Positions 2,003-21,120 of a stretch of DNA of 21,120 bases are shown here, in pieces. Below the pieces are notes generated by a model. It searched no databases. It saw only the letters and a program-made list of their open reading frames with translations, and was not told the DNA's origin. The position numbers and the translations under genes are program-made. Numbering within the stretch: the first letter of the stretch is position 1; every line of letters starts with the position of its first letter. The stretch is from the IMG/VR virus record IMGVR_UViG_2630968336_000003; one strand, written 5' to 3'. The DNA is from a virus. Its lineage: Duplodnaviria; Heunggongvirae; Uroviricota; Caudoviricetes.

Positions 2003-2070
2003 GTCAACATATCCTGAATCAGACATACAATATCGCAATGAAAATCAATAATATTTTAAGGAATATCTTC

Positions 2071-3211: not shown

Positions 3212-3308
3212 AAAATAATCTCGGTGTGAGATGCTTTACGTCTTCCAAGCCCCCTTCCTTGCCGTAAATGGAAAGATACATCTAATTATAGAATTTATAT
3301 GTTTTACC

Positions 3309-3884: not shown

Positions 3885-4846
3885 TATGCAAGCCTCACAA
3901 TATAGTTAAATGCGATGTTTTTGACGGTGTTTTCCGCGTTACCAGCAGCGTTAACGGTGATGGTGTGTCCATGTGAACCAATCGCAACGGAGTGCGTATG
4001 AGCACCAATACCGACAGTATGTGCATGCGCGCCTGCGCTTGCAGCAGTGCCGGACAGCGAGTGGGTATGAGCACCATCTGATGATGTCTTCCCTGCATTA
4101 CGAGTCTGGCCACTACCGCTTGTTGTGCTCATAATCCCCGCGCTTAGATTTGAAATCGCGGTATAACCATTAGGGAAAATGCTCGTGTTCGTGCCACCAA
4201 ATGCACCGGAACTCTTGTGTTGGTGCGCACCGGCACTATTTGCGGTCCCGCTAATACTATGGGTATGCGCCCCGGTGTTATTCGTGGATTTGGTTCCGTA
4301 ATCAAACGACGATGTGGTTTCCGTCCCCAAATCCGTACTGGATGCGCTGGCGCTGTGGGTGTGCGATTTAATGCCGTCCTGTTCCTGAGATAATACGGCC
4401 CGACCACTGGCGGGCTTGCCCTTAATCGTCCAGCCACGCATATCAGGGATCACGCCTGACGGATAAGCAACTGCAAGTTTCGGGTATGCAGATTTGTCAA
4501 AAGTCTGCCCCTGCATCAGGGCATAACCAGACGGAACGGTATCTGATGGCCACGGGATTGGTGCACCGACTGGATAAAACTCTGCAGGAGGATGAGCCGA
4601 GGTGTAAAGCTGCGCCCACGGCGACCAGTTTGCGTCGGTCGTATCCCGTCGTGAACGAATAAATGCCGGAGCATGAGCACCGCTTGTACCACTCCAGCCG
4701 ATGAGTAACTCACCTTCGCCAACGGCTGTCATCCCTTTCAGGTGAATGATATTTCCATACGCTGTTGGATATCCGTTGTTATACACCTCGTATAACTCAA
4801 GACCTGCTGCCCCCTGCGTATTGTCTGTCAGCGCGGTTATATTCAC
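3884..4846 (-). CDS. stfQ: side tail fibre protein, C-terminal fragment starting at a deletion junction (likely non-functional)
   Basis: 320-aa ORF with Gly/Ser/Thr-rich sequence and repeated GAHTHS-type motifs. The reading frame opens with GTG inside sequence that is the 3' end of the Nu1 homologue, so there is no native tail-fibre N-terminus. Confidence 0.8.
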
Positions 4847-5366
4847 TCAGCAACCCCGGTATCAGTTCATCCAGCGCGGCTGCTTTGTTCATGGCTTTGA
4901 TGATATCCCGTTTCAGGAAATCAACATGTCGGTTTTCCAGTTCCGGAAAACGCCGCTGCACCGACAGGGGGATCCCGTCGAGAATACTGGCAATTTCACC
5001 TGCGATCCGCGACAGCACGAAAGTACAGAATGCGGTTTCCACCACTTCAGCGGAGTCTCTGGCATTTTTCAGCTCCTGTGCGTCGGCCTGCGCACGCGTA
5101 AGTCGATGGCGTTCGTACTCAATAGTCCCTGGCTGGAGATCTGTCTCGCTGGCCTGCCGCAGTTCTTCAACTTCCCGGCGCAGCTTTTCGTTCTCAATTT
5201 CAGCATCCCTTTCGGCATACCATCTTATAACGGCGGCAGAGTCATAAAGCACCTCATTACCCTTGCCACCGCCTCGCAGAACGGGCATTCCCTGTTCCTG
5301 CCAGTTCTGAATGGTACGGATACTCGCACCGAAAATGTCAGCCAGCTGCTTTTTGTTGACTTCCAT
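4797..5366 (-). CDS. nohA: terminase small subunit, phage lambda Nu1 homologue
   Basis: 189 aa; N-terminus [29 protein letters not shown] and most of the protein match lambda Nu1 as I remember it. The C-terminal ~13 residues ([13 protein letters not shown]) diverge where lambda has IEQSG, coinciding with the junction to stfQ. Confidence 0.95.
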
Positions 5367-5379
5367 TGTTCATTCCACG

Positions 5380-5585
5380 GCCAAAAACAGAGAAAGGAAA
5401 CGACAGAGGCCCAAAAGCTCGTTTTCAGCACCTGTCGTTTCCTTTCTTTTCAGGGGGTATTTTAAATAAAAACATTAAGTTACGACGAAGAAGAACGGAA
5501 ATGCCTTAAACCGGAAAATTTTCATAAATAGCGAAAACCCGCGAGGTCGCCGCCCCGTAACCTGTCGGATCACCGGAAAGGACCC
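5380..5585 (-). other. lambda-type cohesive end site (cosB-cosN-cosQ region)
   Basis: Minus strand of 5544..5555 reads GGGCGGCGACCT, the lambda 12-nt cohesive end. Flanks match the lambda left end (CTCGCGGGTTTTCGCTATTTATGAAAATTTTCCGG...) and right end (...CCGGTGATCCGACAGGTTACG) from memory; the Nu1 start lies about 190 nt downstream as in lambda. Confidence 0.85.
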
Positions 5586-5754
5586 GTAAAGTGATAATGA
5601 TTATCATCTACATATCACAACGTGCGTGGAGGCCATCAAACCACGTCAAATAATCAATTATGACGCAGGTATCGTATTAATTGATCTGCATCAACTTAAC
5701 GTAAAAACAACTTCAGACAATACAAATCAGCGACACTGAATACGGGGCAACCTC

Positions 5755-5988
5755 ATGTCAACGAAGAACAGAACCCGCAGAACAACAACCCGCAACATCC
5801 GCTTTCCTAACCAAATGATTGAACAAATTAACATCGCTCTTGAGCAAAAAGGGTCCGGGAATTTCTCAGCCTGGGTCATTGAAGCCTGCCGCCGGAGACT
5901 GTGCTCAGAAAAAAGAGTTTCTTCTGAAGCAAACAAAGAAAAGAGTGACATTACTGAATTGCTCAGAAAACAGGTCAGACCAGATTGA
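5755..5988 (+). CDS. ynfO: small basic protein of unknown function (77 aa)
   Basis: ORF with a basic N-terminus (TKNRTRRTTTRNIRFPNQ) in the position of Qin ynfO between cos and ydfO. Confidence 0.65.
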   Translation: MSTKNRTRRTTTRNIRFPNQMIEQINIALEQKGSGNFSAWVIEACRRRLCSEKRVSSEANKEKSDITELLRKQVRPD

Positions 5989-6030
5989 AGCAATTTAGAT
6001 AATCGTGCAGACTACGCCCCCTCATATCAC

Positions 6031-6456
6031 ATGGAAGGTTTATCTATGGATCAGGTAGTCATTTTTAAACAAATATTTGATAAAGTTCGAAACGATTTAA
6101 ACTATCAATGGTTTTATTCTGAGCTAAAACGTCACAATGTCTCACATTACATTTACTATTTAGCCACAGAGAATGTTCATATTGTATTAAAAAATGATAA
6201 TACAGTGTTATTAAAGGGCCTAAAAAACATTGTGTCTGTCAAATTTTCAAAGGATAGGCATCTTATAGAAACGACCTCTAATAAGCTGAAATCCAGAGAG
6301 ATCACATTTCAGGAATACAGAAGAAACCTTGCTAAAGCAGGAGTTTTTCGGTGGGTTACAAATATCCACGAACAAAAAAGATATTACTATACCTTTGATA
6401 ATTCATTACTATTTACTGAAAGCATCCAGAAAACTACACAGATCTTACCACGCTAA
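6031..6456 (+). CDS. ydfO: prophage protein of unknown function (ydfO/ybcV family)
   Basis: 141-aa ORF at the position and size of Qin ydfO. Confidence 0.75.
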
Positions 6457-6607
6457 ACCATAACGTCCGGCTTCTCTCACTCCTGAGCCGGACTGCATTG
6501 GTTTAATAAAAACCATCAACAATTGTGATTTAGATATTCGGAACCATTCAAATATAACAAAACCCCGTAAAAACGAGGTTTATGGATAAATTTTATTATT
6601 GAATACA

Positions 6608-6781
6608 TCAGATTAAATTAATCTTGACATCATAGCTTTCAAGACCCGTCATTTTTTCCCGTGCGGTAAACTGAATACTGGTAACTTCTTTCCCGGTCTT
6701 TTTCTTAAGTTCAATAATTTTTTTTGTTATATATTCAGAAATATCTGCTTCTGCTTTTGTTTTTAAGTTTTCAATATTCAT
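6608..6781 (-). CDS. gnsB: GnsA/GnsB family small protein (57 aa)
   Basis: Hand translation of the minus strand gives MNIENLKTKAEADISEYITKKIIELKKKTGKEVTSIQFTAREKMTGLESYDVKINLI, a clear GnsA/GnsB-type sequence. An ATG one codon upstream would add one Met. Confidence 0.8.
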   Translation of the reverse strand: MNIENLKTKAEADISEYITKKIIELKKKTGKEVTSIQFTAREKMTGLESYDVKINLI

Positions 6782-6952
6782 CATTTCCTCTTTTAGTCTG
6801 TTATGACTTTCCAGTTACACAGTAAGTCGATTATATGGTGCAAACGTGTAAAAGATAAGATGAAACATCGCAATAATCAACATACGATAGTCTAAATTTT
6901 ACACAAACAGACAAAGAGAATTTTCCTGAATTATCAATGCAATAGCATCAAA

Positions 6953-7108
6953 TCAACTCAAGAGCCTTATTGCTGCTTCCAGAATTTCTTCTGAAGTAAC
7001 ATGTCGATCCGCGGCTACATAAATGACTTTATGATCTCCGGTCAGAGATGGAAACCCTGCGGCCATTACAGTAAGGTGTGTTTTTTCGCCATTTGGATAT
7101 TCACGCAT
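6953..7108 (-). CDS. ynfN: cold-shock-induced small protein YnfN (51 aa)
   Basis: Track ORF 6953..7144 (63 aa); starting at the third in-frame Met gives a 51-aa product matching the size I recall for ynfN. Start site uncertain. Confidence 0.6.
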   Translation of the reverse strand: MREYPNGEKTHLTVMAAGFPSLTGDHKVIYVAADRHVTSEEILEAAIRLLS

Positions 7109-7224
7109 GATGGTGTTAACTCCAGTCATCGCTGGCACTACCACTGCTGGTTCAGAGTTAAAAAAACTATGATTTTTTTCATGATGTTACCGTAGTATGT
7201 GAGTATCCATCGAATAGACACCAA

Positions 7225-7250
7225 GCAAAAAAGCTCCCGAAGGAGCCTTC
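7225..7250 (-). terminator. candidate rho-independent terminator
   Basis: GCTCC-CGAA-GGAGC hairpin followed on the minus strand by a U-run (read as TTTTTTGC). Confidence 0.4.
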
Positions 7251-7453
7251 ATTTTCACTTTTTTAAATCCAACGACAGACGGCTGGCATTTAAGTATTGT
7301 GAAATATTATCAAATGTAATCATCATTGATTTACAAAAGATACATTTTGCCCCGAAAGGATTCATGTCAGAAACATCAAAAGATGATGTTCTATACTGGG
7401 AACCATGACAACACGGGCATCTAAAGTGAATATGGTTTGTAATATTGTCTACC

Positions 7454-7666
7454 TCAAAGCGCCACTACATGAACAGCGGCAGGACCTTTAGGTCCGTTCT
7501 CAATACCAAATTCAACTTCCTGATTCTCAGTTAATGTTTTGAAATCGTTGCTCTGAATTGCTGAGAAATGGACAAACACATCTTTGCTGCCATCTTTCGG
7601 CGTGATGAAACCAAAACCTTTTTCAGGGTTAAACCATTTCACTAAACCAGTCATTTTGTTAGACAT
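7454..7666 (-). CDS. cspI: cold shock protein, CspA family
   Basis: 70 aa; [23 protein letters not shown] with RNP1/RNP2 motifs (KGFGFI, VFVHF). Confidence 0.95.
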
Positions 7667-8028
7667 AATTATTACCTTTTGAAGAAATTAGCCCTTGGGC
7701 AGAATGGTCCGAAAAAAAATATCAGAGAGAAAAACCAACAAGGAAATCTCAAGAGGTACAAATAATAAAATTATAACAATGACTGCTTCAGATAAATTTG
7801 TAACAAACCAGAACACCATTAACGCATGATTAACCACCCATAGCAAGGATTACTTTTGTAAAGAAAAACACAGCAATGAAAGAATAGCTTTATTTATTAA
7901 TAAAACGTGTCATTCTGATTAAGACCTTTTATCTTACCCTTAAGATTTCAGGAATTTTGGCTCATGGAAGAGTCCTTTTTATTTAAATTTTACATTCCGC
8001 GATGTAAATGTTCCGATTTAATATTACC

Positions 8029-9052
<1,024 letters not shown>

Positions 9053-9056
<4 letters not shown>

Positions 9057-9364
9057 AGATATTTATGATGAGGACGCTCGTGCTTATTGGCAGGATTTTC
9101 AATCTTAAAGGAGTACTGATGCTGCAGATAAGACTCAACTTTTTCTGACAATTTTTCTGCTACTTCCAGGAAGACTTGCCGGACGCTCCTTCTGGCTGCT
9201 GCCTCATAAAACTCCAGCGCAGCTCCTTCAACACGGTCCATGGCGACATCCAGGTCAAAAATTTCACCGTCAAAGCGTTCTTTGTCCTGTAAGGCTACAG
9301 TTACCGTAACTTTATTCTCAAAATTACGGACTCCTTTCACAACCAGTTCATAGTCTTGAGTCAT
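9053..9364 (-). CDS. ydfR: protein of unknown function inserted between holin and endolysin
   Basis: 103-aa ORF in the position of Qin ydfR; start overlaps the rrrQ start region. Confidence 0.7.
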
Positions 9365-9368
9365 TGGA

Positions 9369-9584
9369 TTACTCTCCTCTCGCAGCCTTACGCCTGTCTT
9401 CTTTAATCTTGAAATAAAGATTTGTCAGATACGTCAGCAGGCCAAAAACCAGGCTACCCAGCACACCGATTGCAGCCCACTGTGACGGAGTTACTTTATC
9501 GAGTAACTGCAATGCCCAGAAACCAGCATTACCCGCCGATGTGCCATAGGCAACACCTGTTGTTAACTTATCCATTGATTTCAT
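9369..9584 (-). CDS. essQ: pinholin (phage 21 S-like), dual-start motif
   Basis: 71 aa from [26 protein letters not shown]...; closely resembles phage 21 S21 with the MKxM dual-start arrangement and two TM segments. Confidence 0.9.
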
Positions 9585-9803
9585 ATCCTCACCCCGATGT
9601 ACACGGATGGTGCAATATGTTTGAAAAGATCGGAGTCTACGGGGTAGTTTTGACAGCACACGTTGTTCTCAACGGCGCTAAAAAAACATACACATTAAAA
9701 ATGTGGGTAATTATTTTGAAAGAAAGTCATATATAAAATAATAATACGAGAAATGTTTTCATATTTAGTGTACTGTATACGGCCATTTATACAGGAAAAG
9801 CCT

Positions 9804-9974
9804 ATGTCAGAACGTAAAAACTCAAAATCACGCCGTAATTATCTCGTTAAATGTTCCTGCCCAAACTGCACCCAAGAGTCAGAACACAGTTTTTCAAGAG
9901 TACAAAAAGGTGCCCTTTTGATCTGCCCTCATTGCAACAAAGTATTCCAGACAAATCTTAAAGCTGTAGCCTGA
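9804..9974 (+). CDS. small zinc-ribbon-like protein (56 aa)
   Basis: ATG at 9804 with a GGA-containing Shine-Dalgarno (AGGAAAAG) just upstream; product MSERKNSKSRRNYLVKCSCPNCTQESEHSFSRVQKGALLICPHCNKVFQTNLKAVA has paired CxxC motifs. It may correspond to a small protein annotated in K-12 (I think ynfU, but I am not certain). Confidence 0.5.
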   Translation: MSERKNSKSRRNYLVKCSCPNCTQESEHSFSRVQKGALLICPHCNKVFQTNLKAVA

Positions 9975-10032
9975 TTGATTTTATTAGTAACAAGTATTTT
10001 TTATATTTTAATAATATATTTAAAGCAGATAA

Positions 10033-10058
10033 TAAAAAACCCGCCTGAGCGGGTTTGA
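10033..10058 (-). terminator. rho-independent terminator downstream of cspB (bidirectional hairpin)
   Basis: CCCGC-CTGA-GCGGG hairpin flanked by an A-run on one side and T-rich sequence on the other. Confidence 0.7.
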
Positions 10059-10337
10059 GATTGTGGTGCTTTTTGTGGGAGTCATCCACTTACGCACTTT
10101 GTTTTGCCATGCCAGCAGTTAGCTTCTGCTGTAAAACTATTCATGCAGCAAACCTGCACTTCACCACAATGGTTAGCATACTTTTCCTGATTAAGATTTT
10201 GCCAAATATGCTAGCCATTGTTTCATGTATTGGACCTCCTTACTTTTTATTAAAGAGATCCAATATTCACTACTCTGTCCGTATCTCTACTCAGGCATCA
10301 GCCTTCTTCGTTATCGTATACAGACGAGCGATGAATT

Positions 10338-10553
10338 TTAATCAGTAATGATGACATTTGCTGCTGCAGGACCTTTAGCACCACTCTCTATAGAGAAGGT
10401 AACCTTTTGACCTTCAAATAAGGTTCGATAATTATCATTCTGAATCGCAGAAAAATGCACAAACACATCTTTACTACCATCAACAGGAGAAATAAAGCCG
10501 AAACCTTTATCAGCGTTAAACCATTTTACTAAACCAGTCATTTTATTTGACAT
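10338..10553 (-). CDS. cspB: cold shock protein, CspA family
   Basis: 71 aa; [23 protein letters not shown] with RNP motifs. Confidence 0.95.
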
Positions 10554-10569
10554 TCTACATTCCTTAACT

Positions 10570-10582
10570 TGAGCCTTTCGGC
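10570..10582 (-). promoter_or_regulatory. cspA-type 'upstream box'-like element in the cspB 5' UTR
   Basis: Minus strand reads GCCGAAAGGCTCA just upstream of the AAGGA Shine-Dalgarno; resembles the GCCGAAAGGCACA element of the cspA leader. Confidence 0.45.
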
Positions 10583-10853
10583 ATAAATGGTTTGCATAAC
10601 AGAAACGACTTCGTACTTAATTGGAGAGACTCAAAGAAGGAATAAGTGAATAACACCTGAAATGAGAACTGCTTTAGTAAACTACTTCGTATATCGTCTG
10701 TTCTTCAAACCGACGCAATCATTAACGCATAGTTGAACATATGAAGCAATGTTTATTTTAGACATCCAGCCATCTTCAACCCCATCAAAAAACTATAGCT
10801 TTCTTCAGGAACGTGTGTATAGTGCGCCAAGTTATCAGTATTAAGGAATTTTT

Positions 10854-11066
10854 TTGTCCCGTAAAATGACAGGAATTGTCAAAACCTTTGACGGCAAAAG
10901 CGGCAAGGGTCTTATCACCCCATCCGATGGTCGTATCGATGTCCAGCTTCATGTTTCAGCGCTCAATCTCCGCGATGCAGAAGAAATTACCACCGGATTA
11001 CGCGTGGAATTTTGCCGGATAAATGGTCTGCGTGGCCCTTCAGCTGCCAATGTTTACCTTTCATGA
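10854..11066 (+). CDS. cspF: cold shock-like protein (divergent CspA family)
   Basis: 70 aa; [37 protein letters not shown] has the CspA fold pattern with degenerate RNP motifs. Confidence 0.9.
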
Positions 11067-11120
11067 GCTATATTAAAGCTTTAATTTCAGGCCCCATCGG
11101 ATCACACATGGAGAGTTTTT

Positions 11121-11210
11121 ATGAATAACCCCGTCTGTCTTGATGACTGGTTGATTGGCTTTAAAAGCTTATGCTGTACTTTGGCCGTAATAGCTCTGCT
11201 AATAATATAA
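11121..11210 (+). CDS. hypothetical small hydrophobic peptide (29 aa)
   Basis: ATG at 11121 with GGAGAG 6 nt upstream; product [29 protein letters not shown]. Confidence 0.25.
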
Positions 11211-11358
11211 TAAGCAGACTCATTGTGTTTAGGGACATTGTACTGGAAGAAAACATTTTAAACATCAGGCAAATAACCAAGTCACCAGCTAAATAATAAG
11301 TTAACAGACATGAGTCCCGGGATGAGATTCAACATTACCATTGCCCCATTTAAAGCAC

Positions 11359-11384
11359 AAAACCCGCTCATCAGCGGGTTTTCT
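11359..11384 (-). terminator. rho-independent terminator downstream of quuQ (candidate tR'-like)
   Basis: ACCCGCT-GAUGA-GCGGGU hairpin followed by UUUUGUGCUUU on the minus strand. Confidence 0.6.
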
Positions 11385-11427
11385 ACTTTTTCTTAACGTC
11401 GGGTATACAAAGCCCATCGTTGAAAAA

Positions 11428-11456
11428 ATTTTATCCATATTTTTTGAAAAATGCAA
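11428..11456 (-). promoter_or_regulatory. candidate late promoter (PR'-like) just downstream of the Q antiterminator gene
   Basis: Minus strand reads TTGCAT, a 17-nt spacer, then TAAAAT; sits between the quuQ stop and the terminator at 11359..11384. Confidence 0.4.
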
Positions 11457-11487
11457 ACATCATGTCGCCATCTTCAGCAAAAATCAT

Positions 11488-12240
11488 TTATCTCGTCACC
11501 TTCCTCAATTGCGCTTCCGCGTATGCTTCTTCCTGCCAGCACTTTGTTACCAGTTTACCAATGACGTCCGCATACCCCTTATACCACTGATAATCGGTCA
11601 GGTCTGGTACCAGCTTCTGGACATGACGTCGTGCCAGCGTGGTCGGTAAACGACTAAACCGGTTTCCATTACAACGCCCACAAATCTTATATACCGGTAC
11701 GCCATGAAACCGGGTTCTTTTTTCATCCAGAACAATCCCTTTACCCTTACACCCTCTGCACGCTGTGCTGGCTTCGCCCTTACCATGGCAATGCTGACAT
11801 AGTTCCTTCACCCATTCTTCCTTGATTACAGATTCCCCGCGTCTGTAGTGTTTCACCACTTCGCGCAATACATTATAAAATCCCGTACCTGAACAATGCT
11901 CACAGCGAGCCTTACTTGCCGCAGACCTGGAGTAATCAGCAAAGGCAAAACTCACGAGGTAAGGAATAATCTGTAACCGGATTTCTTCACTCAATTTGTT
12001 CAATGTCGGGTTATCCAGTGCCATCGCGTAATTTAGCAGGCCTTCAATCGCAAACTGAGGGTCCTGAACACCAACTTTTGCCAGAAATAAGGCCAACCCA
12101 AGTGGTGCTTTCGACTGCACCATCCCCTGCGCTGCCATTACATCCGTAATTGTTAAACAACCGGTGCCTGTCGCTGGAGCGTCATCGCTCAATTTTGGAG
12201 ATTTTGGGGAGTAATATTTTGGTAAGGCTTCAAGGTTCAT
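11488..12240 (-). CDS. quuQ: late-gene antiterminator Q homologue
   Basis: Track ORF 11488..12270; the product from MNLEALPKYY... is about 250 aa. Four CxxCxGxG-type repeats and a position upstream of the lysis genes fit a Q-family antiterminator. Confidence 0.8.
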   Translation of the reverse strand: MNLEALPKYYSPKSPKLSDDAPATGTGCLTITDVMAAQGMVQSKAPLGLALFLAKVGVQDPQFAIEGLLNYAMALDNPTLNKLSEEIRLQIIPYLVSFAFADYSRSAASKARCEHCSGTGFYNVLREVVKHYRRGESVIKEEWVKELCQHCHGKGEASTACRGCKGKGIVLDEKRTRFHGVPVYKICGRCNGNRFSRLPTTLARRHVQKLVPDLTDYQWYKGYADVIGKLVTKCWQEEAYAEAQLRKVTR

Positions 12241-12253
12241 GCTCGTTCTCCAC

Positions 12254-13303
12254 TTACGCCAGTACGCCAATTGCCAGCGCGCGATCGATAAAACGAAATA
12301 TCAGCTCCAGTTGGGAGCCATACTTATCTTCAAATGCCACTGTATCCGTATGCAGCTCGTTGTGATGCTTTCTGCACAAAGGCAACACAAAGAGATCATG
12401 TGCTTTTGTTCCCATTCCGCCCTGCCCGTGACCAATCAGATGATGCGGATCGTCGGCTGGCATACCGCAGCAAGCACACGGCTGTGTCTTAACCCAACGT
12501 GTGTATTTCTCCTTAACCCAGCGGCGACGTTTAGGCAGCTTCATGAAAGATTCCGGAGACTCTGGATCAACGGTGATGCTTACCACCGTCTTTTCCTGTG
12601 GTGATTTTTGTTGCTGGTGGGCGTAAGGCAACGGTGCAAGATTTTTTGTGCGTTGTTTCAATATGCTGGTGGCGGTCAGCTCTCCCGGTACGATGTCGCT
12701 TTCGCGGTACACCGAGCAGATTTTTTCCGCTGGTAATCCCAGCGAACGACGCGATACAGCCTCAGGTAGTGCATCCACCACCTGATTGCAGACCGCCCAC
12801 CAGGATAATTCAGCCAAAGATAATTCCCGCTCCTGCGTACCGCTTATTGCGTGACGGATGACGTCAATCACCCATGCTGTCAGATTTTGTTGAGCAAGCA
12901 GCTCCAGTGATTCCGATGTCTGGTCACGCAGTTGGTTGTCGCAGTGCCAGCACAACACCATTGCGCCGGTACCATAACGGTGAATGACTGTTTCAGTGTG
13001 ATGGTAATCGCCATTAGGCCACTGGCAGGATGTAACATGACGTAATAGCCAGTCGGACAATGCGCCAACGCCGCCAGCAGCACGAATCACCCGTTCGTTA
13101 CTAAAAAACGGCAGCAATGTTTTGTCTTCCGCCAGCGGCTGGCGAACGGCAGGAACGACTCCGGATGGCAGATTACGCATGCTTTTTGGTTCCGGTTCCA
13201 CCAGCACTCGAGGATTATGAAATATCTGTATGGATTCACGGCCCGGCTTAAGGACCACCAGCCCAAGCTCAGGCACCAGAACAGGTCTAAGTAATACCCG
13301 CAC
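12254..13303 (-). CDS. ydfU: prophage protein with Cys/His-rich C-terminal motif (DUF968-like)
   Basis: Track ORF 12254..13342; a GTG at 13303 has a GGAGG Shine-Dalgarno 4 nt upstream and gives 349 aa. The C-terminus carries CACCG...HH...CRKHHNELH. Confidence 0.7.
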   Translation of the reverse strand: MRVLLRPVLVPELGLVVLKPGRESIQIFHNPRVLVEPEPKSMRNLPSGVVPAVRQPLAEDKTLLPFFSNERVIRAAGGVGALSDWLLRHVTSCQWPNGDYHHTETVIHRYGTGAMVLCWHCDNQLRDQTSESLELLAQQNLTAWVIDVIRHAISGTQERELSLAELSWWAVCNQVVDALPEAVSRRSLGLPAEKICSVYRESDIVPGELTATSILKQRTKNLAPLPYAHQQQKSPQEKTVVSITVDPESPESFMKLPKRRRWVKEKYTRWVKTQPCACCGMPADDPHHLIGHGQGGMGTKAHDLFVLPLCRKHHNELHTDTVAFEDKYGSQLELIFRFIDRALAIGVLA

Positions 13304-13304
13304 G

Positions 13305-13583
13305 TTACCTCCAGATCCGTTGCTGGAAAGTGCGGGACGCACGTGGTGGGCGTTCGGAATAAGGCAGCCTGACAGAGATTATCCAGTGCCGATAGTCGAG
13401 ACTGAGAGCTTTCTTAACCTCGAACCCGCGCCTGCGGTAAGAATGAATCAGCCATTCGGCCTGTTCTGCAGTGCATGGAGGGTGCTGGAACCATTCAGAC
13501 TTGAATGCGTGAGAATACCGCCCGTGCGTGCAGGCAAGAACGGGCGAATTATCAGAATTGTAATATTTTGCGTTGCGTGCCAT
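13305..13583 (-). CDS. hypothetical protein (92 aa), translationally coupled to ydfU
   Basis: Its stop (13305..13307) lies one base from the ydfU GTG start; contains conserved-looking Cys/His residues. Confidence 0.5.
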   Translation of the reverse strand: MARNAKYYNSDNSPVLACTHGRYSHAFKSEWFQHPPCTAEQAEWLIHSYRRRGFEVKKALSLDYRHWIISVRLPYSERPPRASRTFQQRIWR

Positions 13584-13649
13584 CGGTTTTCTCCGGTGGC
13601 ACGGTGTTACTCAGCGGGAGTTCAGCCCCGCGCAAGATTGTAGATGAGT

Positions 13650-13901
13650 TTATTCTCCTGAAAAAGCAGAAAAGCCAGCTTTTATTCCGATCTCTTTCAA
13701 TGCCTGTAATGAAGTGACAAACTCACCTTCGCGCAAGATAAATCCGTCCGTGACCCGAGCATCCACAAAATTAATTAACGCAGCCCCATTCTTTCGCAAA
13801 CACATAATGCGGTAATGACTAACAAGATTTCCATTTTCAACGCACACAGCATAGAGGCCATCTTCACAAAAAATTTTACGCAGTTCTTCGATGTTCATCA
13901 T
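13650..13901 (-). CDS. rem: hypothetical protein (83 aa)
   Basis: 83-aa ORF at the position between hokD and ydfU where Qin rem lies; assignment is by size and position only. Confidence 0.45.
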   Translation of the reverse strand: MMNIEELRKIFCEDGLYAVCVENGNLVSHYRIMCLRKNGAALINFVDARVTDGFILREGEFVTSLQALKEIGIKAGFSAFSGE

Positions 13902-14025
13902 CAGAATCCTTCCGGATAATTAGCTCTCCCCTTTAAGGGACCATCCCTCTTATCCCTGCGCGCTACTTAAGTATTTTTGATTCTATTCCGGCACCGTCCA
14001 GAACTTCAAACGCGTTGAAAATAAA

Positions 14026-14050
14026 AACAAAAACCCGCCGAAGCGGGTTA
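14026..14050 (-). terminator. rho-independent terminator downstream of hokD
   Basis: ACCCGC-UUCG-GCGGGU hairpin followed by UUUUUGUUUUUAUUUU on the minus strand. Confidence 0.7.
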
Positions 14051-14117
14051 AGTGCGGGTGCGTTGAGGATGCCTGCCACATCAGAGGTGGCGAGGGATTT
14101 CTCCCCCGCCGGGTCTC

Positions 14118-14273
14118 TTACTCCTCAGGTTCGTAAGCTGTGAAGACAGCGACCTCCGTCTGGCCGGTTCGGATTCGTACCTCGCAGAGGTCTTTCCTCG
14201 TTACCAGTGCCGTCACTATGACGGTTAAACAGATGACGATCAGGGCGATTAACATCGCCTTTTGCTGCTTCAT
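14118..14273 (-). CDS. hokD: Hok-family type I toxin (51 aa)
   Basis: Hand translation gives MKQQKAMLIALIVICLTVIVTALVTRKDLCEVRIRTGQTEVAVFTAYEPEE, a canonical Hok/Gef sequence. Confidence 0.9.
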   Translation of the reverse strand: MKQQKAMLIALIVICLTVIVTALVTRKDLCEVRIRTGQTEVAVFTAYEPEE

Positions 14274-14344
14274 AGCCTGCTTCTCCTGTCAACGCAAAGC
14301 AGAAGTGTCACCTTCGGTGCGAAACAGAGATGTCATGCTTTGGT

Positions 14345-14632
14345 TCAGAGAATGCGTTTGACCGCCTCGCTATATACTTCCGAGCGTTCTCTTTTCCCAA
14401 CAGAAATCACGAAAACGACAACTTTCTCGTCTATAACCTGGTATACAAGGCGATAGCCTGAAGACCGGAGCTTAATCTTGTAACAATCAGGCATACCACG
14501 GAGCTTGTTTGCTTCAATCCGGGGTGACTCAAGTACTTCAACCAGCTTCTTTTTCAACTGTTCACGTACCGTCGAGCCCAGCTTTCGCCATTCCTTTAGT
14601 GCCCGCTCGTCAAAATCCAGAAAATACGCCAT
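14345..14632 (-). CDS. relE: RelE mRNA interferase toxin
   Basis: 95 aa; MAYFLDFDERALKEWRKL... ; RelE/ParE fold pattern. Confidence 0.95.
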   Translation of the reverse strand: MAYFLDFDERALKEWRKLGSTVREQLKKKLVEVLESPRIEANKLRGMPDCYKIKLRSSGYRLVYQVIDEKVVVFVISVGKRERSEVYSEAVKRIL

Positions 14633-14871
14633 CAGAGTTCATCCAGCGTCACACGTACTGGCTTAGGATTACGAAGCCGTTCTTTCACTATCTCCACAAG
14701 TTCAGCATCTTCATCACTCAGGAGTGTCTGTTTGAACGGCAAGCGTTCATTGTCAGCGATATACTCGAGCATGAGACGAAGCGCTTCAGAAGGAGTTACA
14801 CCCATTTTTTCAAGCGCGGCGTAAGAACGCGCTTTAAGTTCATCGTCAATACGCAGGTTAATGCTACCCAT
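14632..14871 (-). CDS. relB: RelB antitoxin
   Basis: 79 aa; MGSINLRIDDELKARSYAALEKMGVTPSEAL (ribbon-helix-helix N-terminus); stop overlaps the relE start. Confidence 0.95.
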   Translation of the reverse strand: MGSINLRIDDELKARSYAALEKMGVTPSEALRLMLEYIADNERLPFKQTLLSDEDAELVEIVKERLRNPKPVRVTLDEL

Positions 14872-14882
14872 GTCTTACACCT

Positions 14883-14908
14883 CTTGTAATTACAAATGTC
14901 ATTACAAG
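14883..14908. promoter_or_regulatory. relBE operator (relO)-like inverted repeats in the relB promoter region
   Basis: Perfect 12-bp palindrome TTGTAATTACAA at 14884..14895 plus an adjacent imperfect copy (TGTCATTACAAG), about 13 bp upstream of the relB start. Confidence 0.65.
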
Positions 14909-15201
14909 TATCGCACTACAACATGCTTAGGGCAAGTCACGAAGGAAGTCAGAAAGTAGTCGTAAGAACGGTGATCACTGTCCGCTTTGTGCCAGGAGCA
15001 GCCATTGCTAAGTCCATCCTGTATTGTGCAGGTCAGCTCGTTTTTAAAGAGTCCGGCCATCATCTTACTGGTACAGACACCATATACTTTGTGACGGTCA
15101 GGCTACATATGCACAACTCAACTTATTCATCTATTTTTTGCTTTAGCATGTCAGTGTTGCTTTCTCGTCGGCGGGTGAGCGGTGACCTGACCTGTCGATA
15201 A
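14896..15201 (+). CDS. ydfV: hypothetical protein (101 aa)
   Basis: ORF at the size and position of Qin ydfV. It starts inside the relB operator and I see no strong Shine-Dalgarno, so its reality as a gene is uncertain. Confidence 0.35.
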   Translation: MSLQVSHYNMLRASHEGSQKVVVRTVITVRFVPGAAIAKSILYCAGQLVFKESGHHLTGTDTIYFVTVRLHMHNSTYSSIFCFSMSVLLSRRRVSGDLTCR

Positions 15202-15353
15202 AGGAACGTAACACGTTTTATGCAACACCCGCATGCGGCAGAAAATTATTGCCGAACGTTTACCCCTGTCAACAAGCTTTACTTTCTGAGGCGCGCCAGC
15301 CCGCGAGGAAAACAATCTGAACATCAAACAATTAATGACACAAGAAATACGAT

Positions 15354-15380
15354 TAAAGATTTTTTTGTGCATGCCGATAG
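15354..15380 (+). promoter_or_regulatory. sigma-28 (FliA) class 3 flagellar promoter for flxA
   Basis: TAAAGATT, an 11-nt spacer, then GCCGATAG, close to the sigma-28 consensus TAAAGTTT-N11-GCCGATAA, about 25 nt upstream of the flxA start. Confidence 0.8.
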
Positions 15381-15403
15381 TGCTTTTTTAAAAGGAGAAA
15401 TCT

Positions 15404-15736
15404 ATGTCTGTCACAATTCAGGGAAATACCTCAACCGTTATTTCAAACAACTCCGCCCCGGAAGGAACATCAGAAATAGCCAAAATCACAAGACAAATTC
15501 AGGTGCTGACTGAAAAGCTTGGGAAAATCTCATCGGAAGAGGGGATGACGACACAGCAGAAAAAAGAAATGGCTGCATTGGTACAGAAGCAAATTGAAAG
15601 CCTCTGGGCTCAACTGGAGCAGTTGTTAAGGCAGCAGGCAGAGAAAAAGAATGAAGACGCGACAGTTCAGCCTGATAAAAAAGAAGAGAAAAAAGACGAT
15701 ACAAATACCGCTGGCACCATTGATATTTACGTCTAA
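15404..15736 (+). CDS. flxA: FliA-regulated protein FlxA
   Basis: 110 aa, Gln/Lys/Glu-rich coiled-coil-like protein directly downstream of a near-consensus sigma-28 promoter. Confidence 0.85.
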   Translation: MSVTIQGNTSTVISNNSAPEGTSEIAKITRQIQVLTEKLGKISSEEGMTTQQKKEMAALVQKQIESLWAQLEQLLRQQAEKKNEDATVQPDKKEEKKDDTNTAGTIDIYV

Positions 15737-15749
15737 GTGACAGCCGTAT

Positions 15750-15776
15750 TGTGGCCCTCATCGGGCCACTTTTCGC
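15750..15776 (+). terminator. rho-independent terminator downstream of flxA
   Basis: GTGGCCC-TCATC-GGGCCAC hairpin followed by TTTTCGCC. Confidence 0.6.
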
Positions 15777-16120
15777 CATCAGCCTTTTCTTTAAAGACAT
15801 ATTATCTTTGTATCATTTCTGATAGTTAACATTACAAGATATAAGTAATGGACGCACTCCCAATTAGTCTATTTAAATCGCCACGAGTTTAACTGACAAC
15901 CCATGATCAATTATGAATTGCAACTATTTCTGTAGTCACTTTTGTGGGGACAGTCCACAAAACTGCCAACTTCCGCTTCTTGCTCTTAGCGGACATTAGC
16001 ATAGGCTATTTACCATAACGCCTCATTACGCGCACCGCCCAGACTGACTCAGCGCGTTTCTGGCATATCCCCGGTAAAACAAGTAACAAACCACCCGAAA
16101 ATGAACACCAGAAACGCGAC

Positions 16121-16348
16121 TTAAGAATCTACCCTATGAATGGATATGCACTCAACCGAATCGATCTTGGTTTCAATCTTTTTTATCGGGATCAGGCTTC
16201 TTTTTAGGTAACTTCGGGGGCTTAACTTGCTGATGACTTTGCGTTCGGCGCGTAAGCCAGGGATGGTCAGCTTTAGGTTTAACATAGTATTTTGAGCGTA
16301 AATCAATACGGGCATTATCCACTCGTTCATGGACACTCTTTTCATCAT
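16121..16348 (-). pseudogene. intK: short ORF at the position of the Qin integrase remnant (intK)
   Basis: 75-aa ORF whose start overlaps the ydfX stop in an ATGA arrangement. Too short for an integrase, and I recognise no catalytic motifs; the assignment is from the known Qin gene order only. Confidence 0.35.
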
Positions 16349-16635
16349 CCAGTGGTAGCCTCCATAATTGCAGGCACTAGCGCCGTGAACTTTTCACGCT
16401 TATCCCTGGTGTCGATAGCCTTCCAGCGTTCAAATATCTTCACTCGATTAACGCCAAGCGCTCGCTGATCAATCGCGCCACCTTCATATGTGACACGCTG
16501 AACATCGATGTTCGGGCGCTCTTTCAAAGCCCAGAATGCTTCAGTGATTAATATCGTCGCCTGCTCCTGTGTCATTCCTGGTCGACATATCCAGGCATCC
16601 AGAGCCTCACGAGCCTGTTCAGGAGTGATTTTCAT
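16345..16635 (-). CDS. ydfX: hypothetical protein (96 aa)
   Basis: ORF downstream of and overlapping dicC, in the position of Qin ydfX. Confidence 0.6.
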   Translation of the reverse strand: MKITPEQAREALDAWICRPGMTQEQATILITEAFWALKERPNIDVQRVTYEGGAIDQRALGVNRVKIFERWKAIDTRDKREKFTALVPAIMEATTG

Positions 16636-16849
16636 TGTTCAACCGCCCCGCCCGCTTCGTCTTACGATATTCATCATAAACTTTGGGATCATACTGAAGC
16701 TCCCCGCCAGATGCCTCCTGTAGACGCATCGCGCGACCTTCGGGAACTAAATCCCCTTTCCAGCTATAAAGCGAAGCCAAACGAATACCTGCTGCTTGTG
16801 CAAGTTTTGTTTTTGAACCGAAATACAAAAGAGCGTCAGTTTTAAGCAT
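16619..16849 (-). CDS. dicC: Cro-like repressor DicC
   Basis: 76-aa basic protein transcribed divergently from dicA, typical of a cro-type regulator (MLKTDALLYFGSKTKLAQAAGIRLASLYSW). Confidence 0.85.
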   Translation of the reverse strand: MLKTDALLYFGSKTKLAQAAGIRLASLYSWKGDLVPEGRAMRLQEASGGELQYDPKVYDEYRKTKRAGRLNNENHS

Positions 16850-16863
16850 TTAAAACACCTTTA

Positions 16864-16883
16864 TTGTTAGTCATAACTAACAA
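16864..16883. promoter_or_regulatory. candidate operator palindrome in the dicC-dicA divergent control region
   Basis: Near-perfect 20-bp palindrome TTGTTAGTCATAACTAACAA between the dicC and dicA starts. Confidence 0.5.
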
Positions 16884-16932
16884 GATAGATGTTAACAAAA
16901 ACATAGTCAATACGATTTAGCATTAGCTAACT

Positions 16933-17340
16933 ATGGAAACAAAAAATTTAACTATCGGCGAACGCATCAGGTATCGTCGGAAAAACCTCAAACACACCCA
17001 AAGGTCTCTTGCTAAAGCCCTGAAAATCTCCCATGTGTCTGTATCACAATGGGAACGGGGTGATAGTGAACCTACAGGGAAGAACCTTTTTGCCCTCAGT
17101 AAAGTATTGCAATGCTCACCAACATGGATTCTATTTGGCGATGAAGACAAGCAACCAACACCACCTGTTGAGAAGCCAGTTGCCTTATCCCCCAAAGAAC
17201 TAGAGCTCCTTGAGCTGTTTAATGCACTGCCAGAATCAGAACAGGATACCCAGCTCGCCGAAATGCGAGCTCGAGTAAAAAACTTCAATAAACTCTTTGA
17301 AGAATTACTAAAAGCCCGTCAGCGGACAAATAAAAGATAA
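16933..17340 (+). CDS. dicA: HTH (XRE family) repressor DicA
   Basis: 135 aa; N-terminal HTH (LKHTQRSLAKALKISHVSVSQWERG) of the P22 C2 / XRE type. Confidence 0.95.
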   Translation: METKNLTIGERIRYRRKNLKHTQRSLAKALKISHVSVSQWERGDSEPTGKNLFALSKVLQCSPTWILFGDEDKQPTPPVEKPVALSPKELELLELFNALPESEQDTQLAEMRARVKNFNKLFEELLKARQRTNKR

Positions 17341-17506
17341 CATCATCAATGAGTTATCTTTTACCACATCAATTATGTTAGCTATAGCATACAAAATCAC
17401 TTGACCGATATGTTAGTCATGGCTAATCTTGTTTGCATCAACACACCGCACGGTGTTCTCAGCAAACAGTTCCGCTACCCCAGCGTTAAGGGGAAATGAG
17501 GTCAGC

Positions 17507-17662
17507 ATGGATACTATCGATCTTGGCAACAACGAATCTCTGGTGTACGGCGTGTTTCCAAACCAGGACGGCACGTTCACCGCAATGACGTATACCAAAA
17601 GCAAAACGTTTAAAACCGAAAATGGTGCCCGTCGCTGGCTGGAAAGAAACTCAGGTGAGTGA
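17507..17662 (+). CDS. ydfA: small protein YdfA (51 aa)
   Basis: Track ORF 17429..17662; the internal Met gives MDTIDLGNNESLVYGVFPNQDGTF..., which I recognise as ydfA. Confidence 0.7.
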   Translation: MDTIDLGNNESLVYGVFPNQDGTFTAMTYTKSKTFKTENGARRWLERNSGE

Positions 17663-17663
17663 T

Positions 17664-17792
17664 ATGGATTTCGACACAATCATGGAAAAGGCTTACGAAG
17701 AATACTTCGAAGGCCTTGCCGAAGGCGAAGAAGCTCTCAGCTTCAGTGAGTTTAAACAGGCGCTTTCCAGTTCGGCAAAATCTAACGGCTGA
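17664..17792 (+). CDS. ydfB: small acidic protein YdfB (42 aa)
   Basis: ATG at 17664 two bases after the ydfA stop; product MDFDTIMEKAYEEYFEGLAEGEEALSFSEFKQALSSSAKSNG. Confidence 0.65.
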   Translation: MDFDTIMEKAYEEYFEGLAEGEEALSFSEFKQALSSSAKSNG

Positions 17793-17821
17793 TAAGCGAA
17801 ACAGCACCGCGAGGAATCAGT

Positions 17822-18040
17822 ATGCAGAAACGAGAACCCGTCATCATCGCGCCAGACTATACCGATGATGAACTTTATGAGTGGATGCGCCAGAAAATTA
17901 ATGCAGCGCAGGATCTGAAATGGGCTAATGAAGCCAGGGCTAAGCAGGCTGAAAATCTGTCCGCTCTGGAGCAGGATATCACCAATCTGGAAAAAGCAGC
18001 GGCATTAAGCATTGCCAGAATGATTACATACCCGCGTTAG
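17822..18040 (+). CDS. ydfC: small protein YdfC (72 aa)
   Basis: ORF with a GAGG-containing Shine-Dalgarno, at the position of Qin ydfC. Confidence 0.75.
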   Translation: MQKREPVIIAPDYTDDELYEWMRQKINAAQDLKWANEARAKQAENLSALEQDITNLEKAAALSIARMITYPR

Positions 18041-18380
18041 TAGCTAATCAACAAAGCTAAGGTTAGTAATTAAGGAGTTCTCCACGGGTGAGGTGGAGTG
18101 CGTGCGCCGGACACGGGTGCGCATCCGGAACTGACAGTTTACTGAAAGGATATTTCCCTGAAAAGTCAGACCATAACGCGAAAGCGCATGGCGAGGTAGC
18201 TGGTTCATAGATAGCCTGTCGTTAAATTTTCGTCGACCGTGCGCTTCCGGTTGTGGCAACCCGCGAAATGGCGCGGCGGTAAGTATGGCGGGGTTATTCC
18301 TTCCCCGTTGAGGACACCGGGTTGTCAGGTTGACCATACGCTTAAGTGACAACCCCGCTGCAACGCCCTCTGTTATCAAT

Positions 18381-18437
18381 TTTCTGGTGACGTTTGGCGG
18401 TATCAGTTTTACTCCGTGACTGCTCTGCCGCCCTTTT
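18381..18437 (+). ncRNA. dicF: DicF small regulatory RNA
   Basis: Sequence TTTCTGGTGACGTTTGGCGGTATCAGTTTTACTCCGTGACTGCTCTGCCGCCCTTTTT matches DicF as I recall it, including the terminal GGCGG...CCGCC hairpin and U-run. Ends are approximate (about 5 nt either way). Confidence 0.85.
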
Positions 18438-18607
18438 TAAAGTGAATTTTGTGATGTGGTGAATGCGGCTGAGCGCACGCGGAACAGTTAAAACCAAAAA
18501 CAGTGTTATGGGTGGATTCTCTGTATCCGGCGTTAATTGTTAACTGGTTAACGTCACCTGGAGGCACCAGGCACTGCATCACAAAATTCATTGTTGAGGA
18601 CGCGATA

Positions 18608-18796
18608 ATGAAAACGTTATTACCAAACGTTAATACGTCTGAAGGTTGTTTTGAAATTGGTGTCACTATCAGTAACCCAGTATTTACTGAAGATGCCATT
18701 AACAAGAGAAAACAAGAACGGGAGCTATTAAATAAAATATGCATTGTTTCAATGCTGGCTCGTTTACGTCTGATGCCAAAAGGATGTGCACAATGA
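18608..18796 (+). CDS. dicB: cell division inhibitor DicB
   Basis: 62 aa; MKTLLPNVNTSEGCFEIGVTISNPVFTEDAINKRKQERELLNKICIVSMLARLRLMPKGCAQ. Confidence 0.95.
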   Translation: MKTLLPNVNTSEGCFEIGVTISNPVFTEDAINKRKQERELLNKICIVSMLARLRLMPKGCAQ

Positions 18797-18951
18797 ATTC
18801 AGCATTTGTGCTTGTTCTGACAGTTTTTCTTGTTTCCGGAGAGCCAGTTGATATTGCAGTCAGTGTTCACAGGACAATGCAGGAGTGTATGACTGCAGCA
18901 ACCGAACAGAAAATTCCCGGTAACTGTTACCCGGTTAGACTGGCCCCCTGA
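18793..18951 (+). pseudogene. ydfD: ydfD-type small membrane protein gene, 3' end interrupted by IS2
   Basis: ATG at 18793 overlaps the dicB stop (ATGA). The frame enters the IS2 left end at 18936 and terminates after five IS2-encoded codons. Removing IS2 and one copy of the target duplication restores a 63-codon ORF ending at 20318..20320. Confidence 0.7.
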
Positions 18952-19026
18952 ATCTCCAGACAACCAATATCACTTAAATAAGTGATAGTCTTAATACTAG
19001 TTTTTAGACTAGTCATTGGAGAACAG

Positions 19027-19392
19027 ATGATTGATGTCTTAGGGCCGGAGAAACGCAGACGGCGTACCACACAGGAAAAGATCGCAATTGTTCAGCAGAG
19101 CTTTGAACCGGGGATGACGGTCTCCCTCGTTGCCCGGCAACATGGTGTAGCAGCCAGCCAGTTATTTCTCTGGCGTAAGCAATACCAGGAAGGAAGTCTT
19201 ACTGCTGTCGCCGCCGGAGAACAGGTTGTTCCTGCCTCTGAACTTGCTGCCGCCATGAAGCAGATTAAAGAACTCCAGCGCCTGCTCGGCAAGAAAACGA
19301 TGGAAAATGAACTCCTCAAAGAAGCCGTTGAATATGGACGGGCAAAAAAGTGGATAGCGCACGCGCCCTTATTGCCCGGGGATGGGGAGTAA
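19027..19392 (+). CDS. insC: IS2 transposase OrfA (InsC)
   Basis: [41 protein letters not shown]... with HTH; an A6G slippery heptamer at 19344..19350 lies in the overlap with insD. Confidence 0.95.
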
Positions 19393-20255
19393 GCTTAGTC
19401 AGCCGTTGTCTCCGGGTGTCGCGTGCGCAGTTGCACGTCATTCTCAGACGAACCGATGACTGGATGGATGGCCGCCGCAGTCGTCACACTGATGATACGG
19501 ATGTGCTTCTCCGTATACACCATGTTATCGGAGAGCTGCCAACGTATGGTTATCGTCGGGTATGGGCGCTGCTTCGCAGACAGGCAGAACTTGATGGTAT
19601 GCCTGCGATCAATGCCAAACGTGTTTACCGGATCATGCGCCAGAATGCGCTGTTGCTTGAGCGAAAACCTGCTGTACCGCCATCGAAACGGGCACATACA
19701 GGCAGAGTGGCCGTGAAAGAAAGCAATCAGCGATGGTGCTCTGACGGGTTCGAGTTCTGCTGTGATAACGGAGAGAGACTGCGTGTCACGTTCGCGCTGG
19801 ACTGCTGTGATCGTGAGGCACTGCACTGGGCGGTCACTACCGGCGGCTTCAACAGTGAAACAGTACAGGACGTCATGCTGGGAGCGGTGGAACGCCGCTT
19901 CGGCAACGATCTTCCGTCGTCTCCAGTGGAGTGGCTGACGGATAATGGTTCATGCTACCGGGCTAATGAAACACGCCAGTTCGCCCGGATGTTGGGACTT
20001 GAACCGAAGAACACGGCGGTGCGGAGTCCGGAGAGTAACGGAATAGCAGAGAGCTTCGTGAAAACGATAAAGCGTGACTACATCAGTATCATGCCCAAAC
20101 CAGACGGGTTAACGGCAGCAAAGAACCTTGCAGAGGCGTTCGAGCATTATAACGAATGGCATCCGCATAGTGCGCTGGGTTATCGCTCGCCACGGGAATA
20201 TCTGCGGCAGCGGGCTTGTAATGGGTTAAGTGATAACAGATGTCTGGAAATATAG
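19350..20255 (+). CDS. insD: IS2 transposase OrfB (InsD), DDE catalytic domain
   Basis: 301-aa ORF overlapping insC in the -1 frame; integrase/DDE core. Confidence 0.95.
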
Positions 20256-20412
20256 GGGCAAATCCACCGGTCGATAAAGTTATTCACCAGGATAATATCG
20301 AAATCCCGGCAGGTCTTTAAAACAGTTCCGTAATAAATATCCGGTTTCATTCTTATATGCCAGCAATGGCAGGGATTTGTTCATCCTTAAATCTGTCATG
20401 AGGTTAAAACAA

Positions 20413-21120
20413 ATGAGTAAAGTCTTTATTTGCGCCGCTATTCCTGACGAACTGGCAACAAGGGAAGAAGGCGCTGTGGCTGTAGCCACAGCCATTGAAG
20501 CTGGCGACGAACGCCGTGCTCGAGCAAAATTTCACTGGCAATTCCTGGAACATTATCCGGCTGCTCAGGACTGCGCTTATAAATTTATTGTCTGCGAGGA
20601 TAAACCTGGCATACCCCGCCCTGCCCTCGATTCATGGGATGCTGAATATATGCAGGAAAACCGCTGGGATGAGGAGTCTGCTTCTTTTGTCCCGGTTGAG
20701 ACTGAATCCGATCCGATGAACGTCACTTTTGACAAGCTGGCCCCTGAAGTACAGAACGCTGTCATGGTTAAGTTCGACACATGTGAAAACATCACCGTTG
20801 ATATGGTTATTAGCGCACAGGAATTGTTGCAGGAAGACATGGCAACATTCGACGGACATATCGTTGAAGCGTTGATGAAAATGCCAGAAGTTAACGCCAT
20901 GTATCCGGAGCTTAAGTTGCACGCCATTGGGTGGGTTAAGCATAAATGTATTCCTGGTGCTAAATGGCCCGAAATTCAGGCAGAGATGCGCATCTGGAAA
21001 AAACGTCGCGAAGGTGAACGCAAGGAAACCGGAAAATGGGGTCGAGTATTGCCGGGACGCTGGGTGGTGTTTTCTGGCATAACTATGGCTGGAACGGCGT
21101 CGGCGCATTTATTGCTCTGA
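20413..21120 (+). CDS. hypothetical prophage protein, partial (runs off the window end)
   Basis: ATG at 20413 with GAGG 9-10 nt upstream; open to the last base of the window (at least 236 codons). No domain recognised. By position it may correspond to Qin ydfE. Confidence 0.55.
   Translation: MSKVFICAAIPDELATREEGAVAVATAIEAGDERRARAKFHWQFLEHYPAAQDCAYKFIVCEDKPGIPRPALDSWDAEYMQENRWDEESASFVPVETESDPMNVTFDKLAPEVQNAVMVKFDTCENITVDMVISAQELLQEDMATFDGHIVEALMKMPEVNAMYPELKLHAIGWVKHKCIPGAKWPEIQAEMRIWKKRREGERKETGKWGRVLPGRWVVFSGITMAGTASAHLLL

Follow-up and report, generated by a model that had tools for sequence, protein, structure and literature searches.

A complete IS2 element interrupts the Qin prophage gene ydfD in Escherichia coli K-12 HMS174

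Introduction

The dicBF operon of the Qin prophage of Escherichia coli K-12 ends in ydfD, the gene of a 63-residue lysis protein, for which the original paper is reportedly that of Masuda et al. from 2016. Under the control of the repressor DicA, the operon yields, as the longest transcript detected, a 1,608-nt ydfABC-dicFB-ydfD message (PMC10448788). In a series of engineered YdfD deletions (deltaC1, deltaC2, deltaC5, L63A, and deltaC35; Lu et al. 2022, PMC8835842), C-terminal residues of this protein are lost. Lethality disappears in deltaC1, deltaC2, deltaC5, and L63A, with more survivors for longer deletions, and the N-terminal domain (residues 1 to 28) binds IspG in pull-downs (PMC8835842). 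Here, a natural allele of ydfD is described that is carried by a 21,120-bp stretch of DNA (IMG/VR virus record IMGVR_UViG_2630968336_000003; referred to in full as the window) and by the K-12 strain HMS174, and in which a complete copy of the insertion sequence (IS) IS2 lies within the 3' end of the gene. Unlike the engineered deletions, this allele is a natural deltaC15 form that carries four foreign residues.

IS2, a member of the IS3 family, makes its OrfAB transposase through a -1 frameshift and moves through a figure-of-eight and then a minicircle, in which the abutted ends form the strong promoter Pjunc (PMC3299598). It inserts with a 5-bp duplication of the target, and the donor copy stays in place (PMC3299598). 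The right end of Qin in K-12 reference strains is organized as dicB-ydfD-ydfE'-IS2 remnant (insD-7)-intQ', where ydfD is intact and the end of ydfE' is occupied by a truncated IS2 remnant. According to the genome announcement of HMS174, this strain has five extra IS elements with respect to W3110, and the largest of its deletions spans 20,110 bp, the ynf operon included (PMC4239344). IS2, YdfD, and the HMS174 genome have all been described before, and the insertion is present in a public annotated genome; among the papers covered by a literature search, none deals with HMS174 in connection with ydfD or with IS2 inserted in ydfD.

Structure of the insertion

The cell division inhibitor gene dicB (18608..18796, plus strand; annotated in HMS174 and W3110) is intact and identical to that of W3110, and its TGA stop (18794 to 18796) overlaps the ATG of ydfD at position 18793. 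The ydfD reading frame runs through 48 native codons into the left end of IS2 and terminates there at an IS2-encoded TGA (18949 to 18951). The resulting chimeric open reading frame (ORF; 18793..18951, plus strand) encodes 52 residues ending in NCYPVRLAP, to which IS2 supplies the third base of Val48, four sense codons (RLAP), and the stop codon. RefSeq names the product "DUF1482 family protein" (WP_045152978.1). An earlier note on this DNA had placed IS2 within ydfD directly after dicB and had given the same chimeric C terminus, and both can be read directly from the overlap at 18793 and the translation; its count of five IS-encoded codons has to be corrected to four residues and a stop.

The orphaned 3' end of ydfD, with the codons for DKVIHQDNIEIPAGL and a TAA stop, is found on the other side of the element (20272..20320, plus strand), where position 20272 is the third base of Val48. 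When IS2 and one copy of the flanking CCGGT are excised in silico, the two parts join into a 63-residue ORF with its TAA at 20318 to 20320, which is identical to the "lysis protein YdfD" of W3110 (WP_001083297.1). This agrees with what the note had expected from the length of the rejoined frame, and the 63-residue form is also the conserved one: eight other intact ydfD alleles from elsewhere all encode 63 residues and share the near-invariant C terminus DKVIHQDN(I/N)EIPAGL. Against the Pfam family DUF1482 (PF07358; cut-off, 25 bits), the reconstructed protein covers profile positions 1 to 57 with 91.1 bits, whereas the chimeric protein covers positions 1 to 46 of 57 with 75.9 bits. By score the window allele is a member of DUF1482, but it does not span the full-length domain.

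The inserted element is 1331 bp long (18936..20266, plus strand), and its transposase genes are co-directional with the dicBF operon. Its left end starts with TAGACTGGCCCCC and its right end finishes with GGGGCAAATCCA. A gapped alignment of the two ends delimits a left inverted repeat of 42 bp (IRL; 18936..18977, plus strand) and a right inverted repeat of 41 bp (IRR; 20226..20266, plus strand), which form the known imperfect inverted repeat of IS2 and have the published lengths of 42 and 41 bp (PMC3299598). Between them lie orfA (insC; 19027..19392, plus strand), which encodes 121 residues with a Pfam HTH_Tnp_1 domain (E = 1.8e-19), and the orfB (insD) frame (19350..20255, plus strand), which is 301 residues long as an ORF and contains the Pfam domains HTH_21, rve, and rve_3. 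The two are linked by an A6G slippery heptamer (19344..19350, plus strand; found by pattern match) for the -1 programmed frameshift that yields OrfAB (PMC3299598), and RefSeq annotates the element in HMS174 as [quoted passage not shown] The element is flanked by two perfect copies of the pentamer CCGGT (18931..18935 and 20267..20271), read directly from the sequence.

Length, inverted repeats, the two ORFs with the A6G site, the 5-bp duplication, and identity to the reference all assign the element to IS2 of the IS3 family, and the complete element and the perfect duplication recognized in the earlier note stand as it gave them. The canonical K-12 IS2, taken from full copies in the K-12 derivatives JW-5 and BH212, has no mismatch to the window copy over 1331 bp and shares its 42- and 41-bp repeats, orfA and orfB, A6G site, and 5-bp duplication, so that the insertion site alone differs. 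Duplications of 5 bp also flank seven other IS2 or IS2-like copies examined, and the published footprint of rcsC::IS2 in W3110, 1336 bp (PMC10652928), is the same as that of IS2 plus its duplication here. Since the window copy is complete, it should in principle still be mobile. Taken together, these features are those of one ordinary IS2 transposition into ydfD in the K-12 HMS174 lineage, which is very probably how the allele arose.

Occurrence among E. coli genomes

The window is identical (100%) to a segment of the HMS174 chromosome (NZ_LM993812.1, approximately positions 1600962 to 1622081). The comparison with W3110 reveals two rearrangements, the IS2 insertion and a deletion further downstream, and outside these the prophage and its operon are the same, with 0 mismatches over positions 1 to 18935 and again over positions 20272 to 21037. 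Taking out IS2 together with one CCGGT copy gives back the W3110 sequence without a mismatch. Among 5426 complete E. coli genomes, HMS174 is the only one that matches a 100-bp probe across the left IS2 junction contiguously, and it is likewise the only one to do so for a 100-bp probe across the right junction. The gene is intact in W3110, MG1655, MC4100, DH10B, C600, and others, where IS2 is represented by the truncated remnant after ydfE'. Overall, 4075 genomes have the ydfD region, and 4004 of them carry it without interruption; 71 genomes are without a contiguous ydfD, and the insertions described below are those among the matches listed.

The earlier note could not tell whether IS2 occupies the same site in the K-12 reference. 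Alignment to W3110 and MG1655 shows an uninterrupted ydfD in both, no allele of a reference strain shares the chimeric stop, and the junction is confined to the single genome of HMS174. The IS2 site in ydfD is therefore specific to this strain.

A repeat that is present in several copies can be misplaced during in silico gap filling, and the presence of IS2 at ydfD could in that case be an assembly artefact. The left junction between ydfD and IS2, together with the exact 52-residue product, reappears with 100% identity in short-read assemblies made independently from several other sequencing runs, and the perfect 5-bp duplication and the in-frame restoration of ydfD upon excision are marks of a real transposition. 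An artefact is thus exceedingly improbable. Separately, a Logan contig from run SRR29305865 (L017, positions 2054 to 3313) matches the window through the whole of IS2 plus 2 bases, beyond which it carries unrelated sequence with a sulfatase-family gene. This flank probably represents a jump of the assembler between IS2 copies and not a different arrangement of the locus.

Consequences for YdfD and the dicBF operon

The published C-terminal deletion data (PMC8835842) support the guess, made in the earlier note, that the insertion truncates the toxin. The HMS174 allele is without the last 15 residues of YdfD and, because even 1-residue C-terminal deletions abolish lethality, should be non-lytic. 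An alternative is that the truncated protein is still active, either as a toxin or as a dominant-negative binder of IspG, so that its function would be changed and not abolished. In its favor, the retained residues 1 to 28 are those that bind IspG in pull-downs (PMC8835842), and the chimeric protein keeps the hydrophobic N terminus and the conserved cysteines C32 and C45. Nevertheless, lethality is lost in all of the C-terminal deletions tested, that of one residue included, which makes a retained activity of this kind quite unlikely. Loss of the lytic activity is thus the preferred prediction for this allele.

Upstream of the insertion, the annotation confirms the gene order dicA / ydfA-ydfB-ydfC-dicF-dicB-ydfD, and in the window neither the dicA/dicC immunity region nor ydfABC is disrupted. 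DicF RNA is recognized at 18382 to 18433 on the plus strand by Rfam (76.7 bits versus a gathering threshold of 48). Between ydfD and ydfE, a consensus scan detects a terminator-like hairpin with a T-rich tail (20358..20381, plus strand). The ydfABC-dicFB-ydfD transcript probably ends here normally, as by arithmetic the position of the hairpin fits a length of 1,608 nt; through the IS2 insertion the hairpin now lies 1336 bp further from dicB and the truncated ydfD. A hybrid outward promoter at the right end of IS2 was considered and rejected: the consensus scan of the junction finds no plus-strand promoter, and the flank hexamers located 16 to 18 bp past the -35 element in IRR (CCGGTC, CGGTCG, and GGTCGA) are unlike a -10 element.

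Downstream region

The ORF that follows the hairpin is ydfE' (20413..21037, plus strand), an exonuclease VIII-like (RecE-like) remnant that both the HMS174 and the W3110 annotation list as a pseudogene. In every K-12 strain ydfE is a pseudogene, while the full-length homologue in E. coli PCN061 measures 2472 nt. The separation of dicB and ydfD from this ORF, to which the earlier note had drawn attention, is therefore real but unimportant.

At position 21037, the pseudogene ydfE' is interrupted a second time, through an out-of-frame fusion to the final ~140 nt of ynfM that shows a 1-bp microhomology (T). The junction, which HMS174 alone has among the 5426 genomes, marks a deletion of 20,110 bp, and the largest HMS174 deletion published has the same size (PMC4239344). 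With respect to W3110, the deleted segment comprises the end of ydfE', the IS2 remnant, intQ', rspBA, ynfA-D, speG, ynfEFGH, dmsD, clcB, bioD2, mlc, ynfL, and most of ynfM. The window therefore differs from the K-12 reference not only in having a complete IS2 inside ydfD but also in having lost 17 chromosomal genes, from rspB into the 5' part of ynfM, along with intQ' and the remnant.

An origin of this deletion through IS2 was considered and rejected, both for the resident remnant and for the new copy. No IS end coincides with either endpoint; the left one falls ~140 bp short of the K-12 IS2 remnant. The new IS2, for its part, retains both copies of its CCGGT duplication. For these reasons the deletion is not an IS2-adjacent one, and illegitimate recombination at the 1-bp microhomology is favored.

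Elsewhere in the window, Rfam hits above the gathering threshold are obtained on the minus strand for an IS009 RNA inside tfaQ (3343 to 3541) and for two cspA-type thermoregulator leaders located upstream of cspI and cspB (7427 to 7812 and 10322 to 10714).

Other insertions in the dicBF operon

The closest counterpart of the HMS174 allele is a ydfD::IS2-like insertion in E. coli PCN061 (NZ_CP006636.1; L002, positions 3324 to 4654), which shares the gene, the orientation, the element length of 1331 bp, and a 5-bp duplication. It is located 13 bp upstream of the HMS174 site, is flanked by the duplication CGGTA, consists of an element 95.5% identical to IS2, and gives rise to a 59-residue chimera. 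The PCN061 prophage is also more complete than that of HMS174, with a full-length exonuclease gene, xis, and int. Because site, duplication, element sequence, and prophage all differ, the PCN061 insertion is an independent event. In E. coli S1-NGR-02-A (NZ_CP145679.1; L021, approximately positions 2707 to 4015), an IS3-family element likewise lies co-directionally in the 3' end of ydfD. This element differs from that of HMS174 in being IS629/IS1203-like, with the ends TGAACCG...CGGTTCA and an apparent 3-bp duplication (TAA), and it is located ~22 bp downstream and produces a 71-residue chimera. Among the matches listed there are thus three independent ydfD insertions within ~40 bp (HMS174, PCN061, and S1-NGR-02-A).

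IS2 or IS2-like elements have also entered the dicBF operon elsewhere in other lineages, at no fewer than six sites (L006, L007, and L011 to L014). They are found in ydfB (O111:H21 15A and NRZ105822), between ydfC/dicF and dicB (FDAARGOS_1249 and Eco_23-2678), in a partial copy of dicB that immediately precedes an intact one (GPEC1035/1209/1210), and between ydfD and the exonuclease gene (HCP5S3_I2/LCP30S3_I5). Duplications of 5 bp are present at all of the other-site insertions checked, a set that does not include L012.

In strain XL10-Gold (L010, positions 2501 to 2863), a 50-bp match to the right end of IS2 directly abuts an N-terminally truncated dicB. There, the dicB'-ydfD-ydfE' block adjoins ybfC/RHS sequence and the Tn10 tetR region, indicating a rearranged locus.

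The insertions in this operon raise the question of selection. The dicBF operon products are toxic upon expression (PMC10448788 and PMC8835842). A knockout of the YdfD toxin or a damping of the operon might be advantageous, and IS insertion would then be a recurrent way of disarming a cryptic prophage. Such an account draws on the insertions in PCN061 and S1-NGR-02-A, at least two further independent co-oriented IS3-family events in the 3' third of ydfD, and on the at least six sites elsewhere in the operon. Set against it are the 4004 of 4075 genomes carrying the locus in which ydfD is uninterrupted and the numbers expected by chance. With a rough estimate of 10,000 to 18,000 IS2-like copies in the 5426 genomes, ~0.4 to 0.7 hits are expected in the 192-bp ydfD and ~5 to 9 in the 2.5-kb operon, whereas 2 IS2-type hits in ydfD and ~11 in the operon are observed among the matches listed, which is of the same order. 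The first search, moreover, detected co-oriented IS2 copies only, which accounts for the shared orientation in two of the three insertions, and selection would have little to act on while DicA keeps the operon repressed, as it normally does. Selection for the insertion is, on balance, very improbable.

Instead, the structure or sequence of the site itself could make it a hot spot for IS2-type elements. The uninterrupted target (18915 to 18935 joined to 20272 to 20280 of the window) reads TTCCCGGTAACTGTTACCCGGTCGATAAAG and contains two copies of CCCGGT, 13 bp apart, that bracket the palindrome GGTAAC-T-GTTACC. The insertion pentamers of PCN061 (CGGTA) and HMS174 (CCGGT) lie in these two copies, so that nearly the same pentamer has been used twice, and IS2 targets have been reported at or near intrinsically bent DNA (PMC3299598). 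These are two events only, and the chance that two of about ten regional events fall within 13 bp is estimated at ~0.5. Besides, the other IS2 duplications (GTGAA, GCTGC, GGCAC, GTTGC, GCGCC, GCAAC, and CCAGG) share no motif beyond their G+C-richness. A hot spot at this position is accordingly judged improbable.

Neither a hot spot nor selection emerges from the rough counts, in which observed and expected numbers show no clear excess. The broader proposal that the 3' third of ydfD, or the dicBF operon as a whole, is hit repeatedly by IS3-family elements in different E. coli lineages, whether through disarming of the toxin or through the CCCGGT repeats with the GGTAACTGTTACC palindrome, appears unlikely. 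A single ordinary transposition in the HMS174 lineage remains the preferred explanation of the window allele.

Discussion

The HMS174 allele can be accounted for by the known behavior of IS2. A resident K-12 copy of this IS3-family element would have transposed by the copy-out/paste-in route and entered ydfD between the second and third base of codon 48, duplicating CCGGT. The lytic, IspG-inhibiting activity of YdfD would thereby be lost, and the N-terminal domain with its in vitro IspG binding would be kept. The unchanged dicB would now be carried on a transcript that needs to run 1.3 kb through IS2 to reach its usual terminator-like 3' end. With DicA repressing the operon and nothing but pseudogene sequence left 3' of ydfD, the insertion was probably a neutral mutation of the laboratory lineage.

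Nothing speaks against the structure as described, although several points qualify the account as a whole. The right junction is contiguous in the HMS174 reference assembly only, as the short-read contigs end or branch within IS2, and the repeats of that reference were partly filled in silico (PMC4239344). The genome paper lists the corresponding extra element as "1 IS3" and not as IS2, so that equating it with the ydfD copy is an assumption. As for its date, the insertion may go back to the W3110 thy- parent or to the KL16-99 donor, or it may be more recent. Finally, the loss of function is extrapolated from other C-terminal deletions and not from the allele with 48 native residues plus RLAP itself.

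The practical value of the finding is small, and it touches no open question. Nonetheless, HMS174 and HMS174(DE3), which are common protein production hosts, are best viewed as natural C-terminal truncation mutants of ydfD, and they are also without the 20-kb rspB-ynfM segment, including mlc, speG, and ynfEFGH. This may be of relevance where dicBF- or YdfD-dependent lysis, the physiology of the Qin prophage, or the copy number of IS2 is considered in the HMS174 background.

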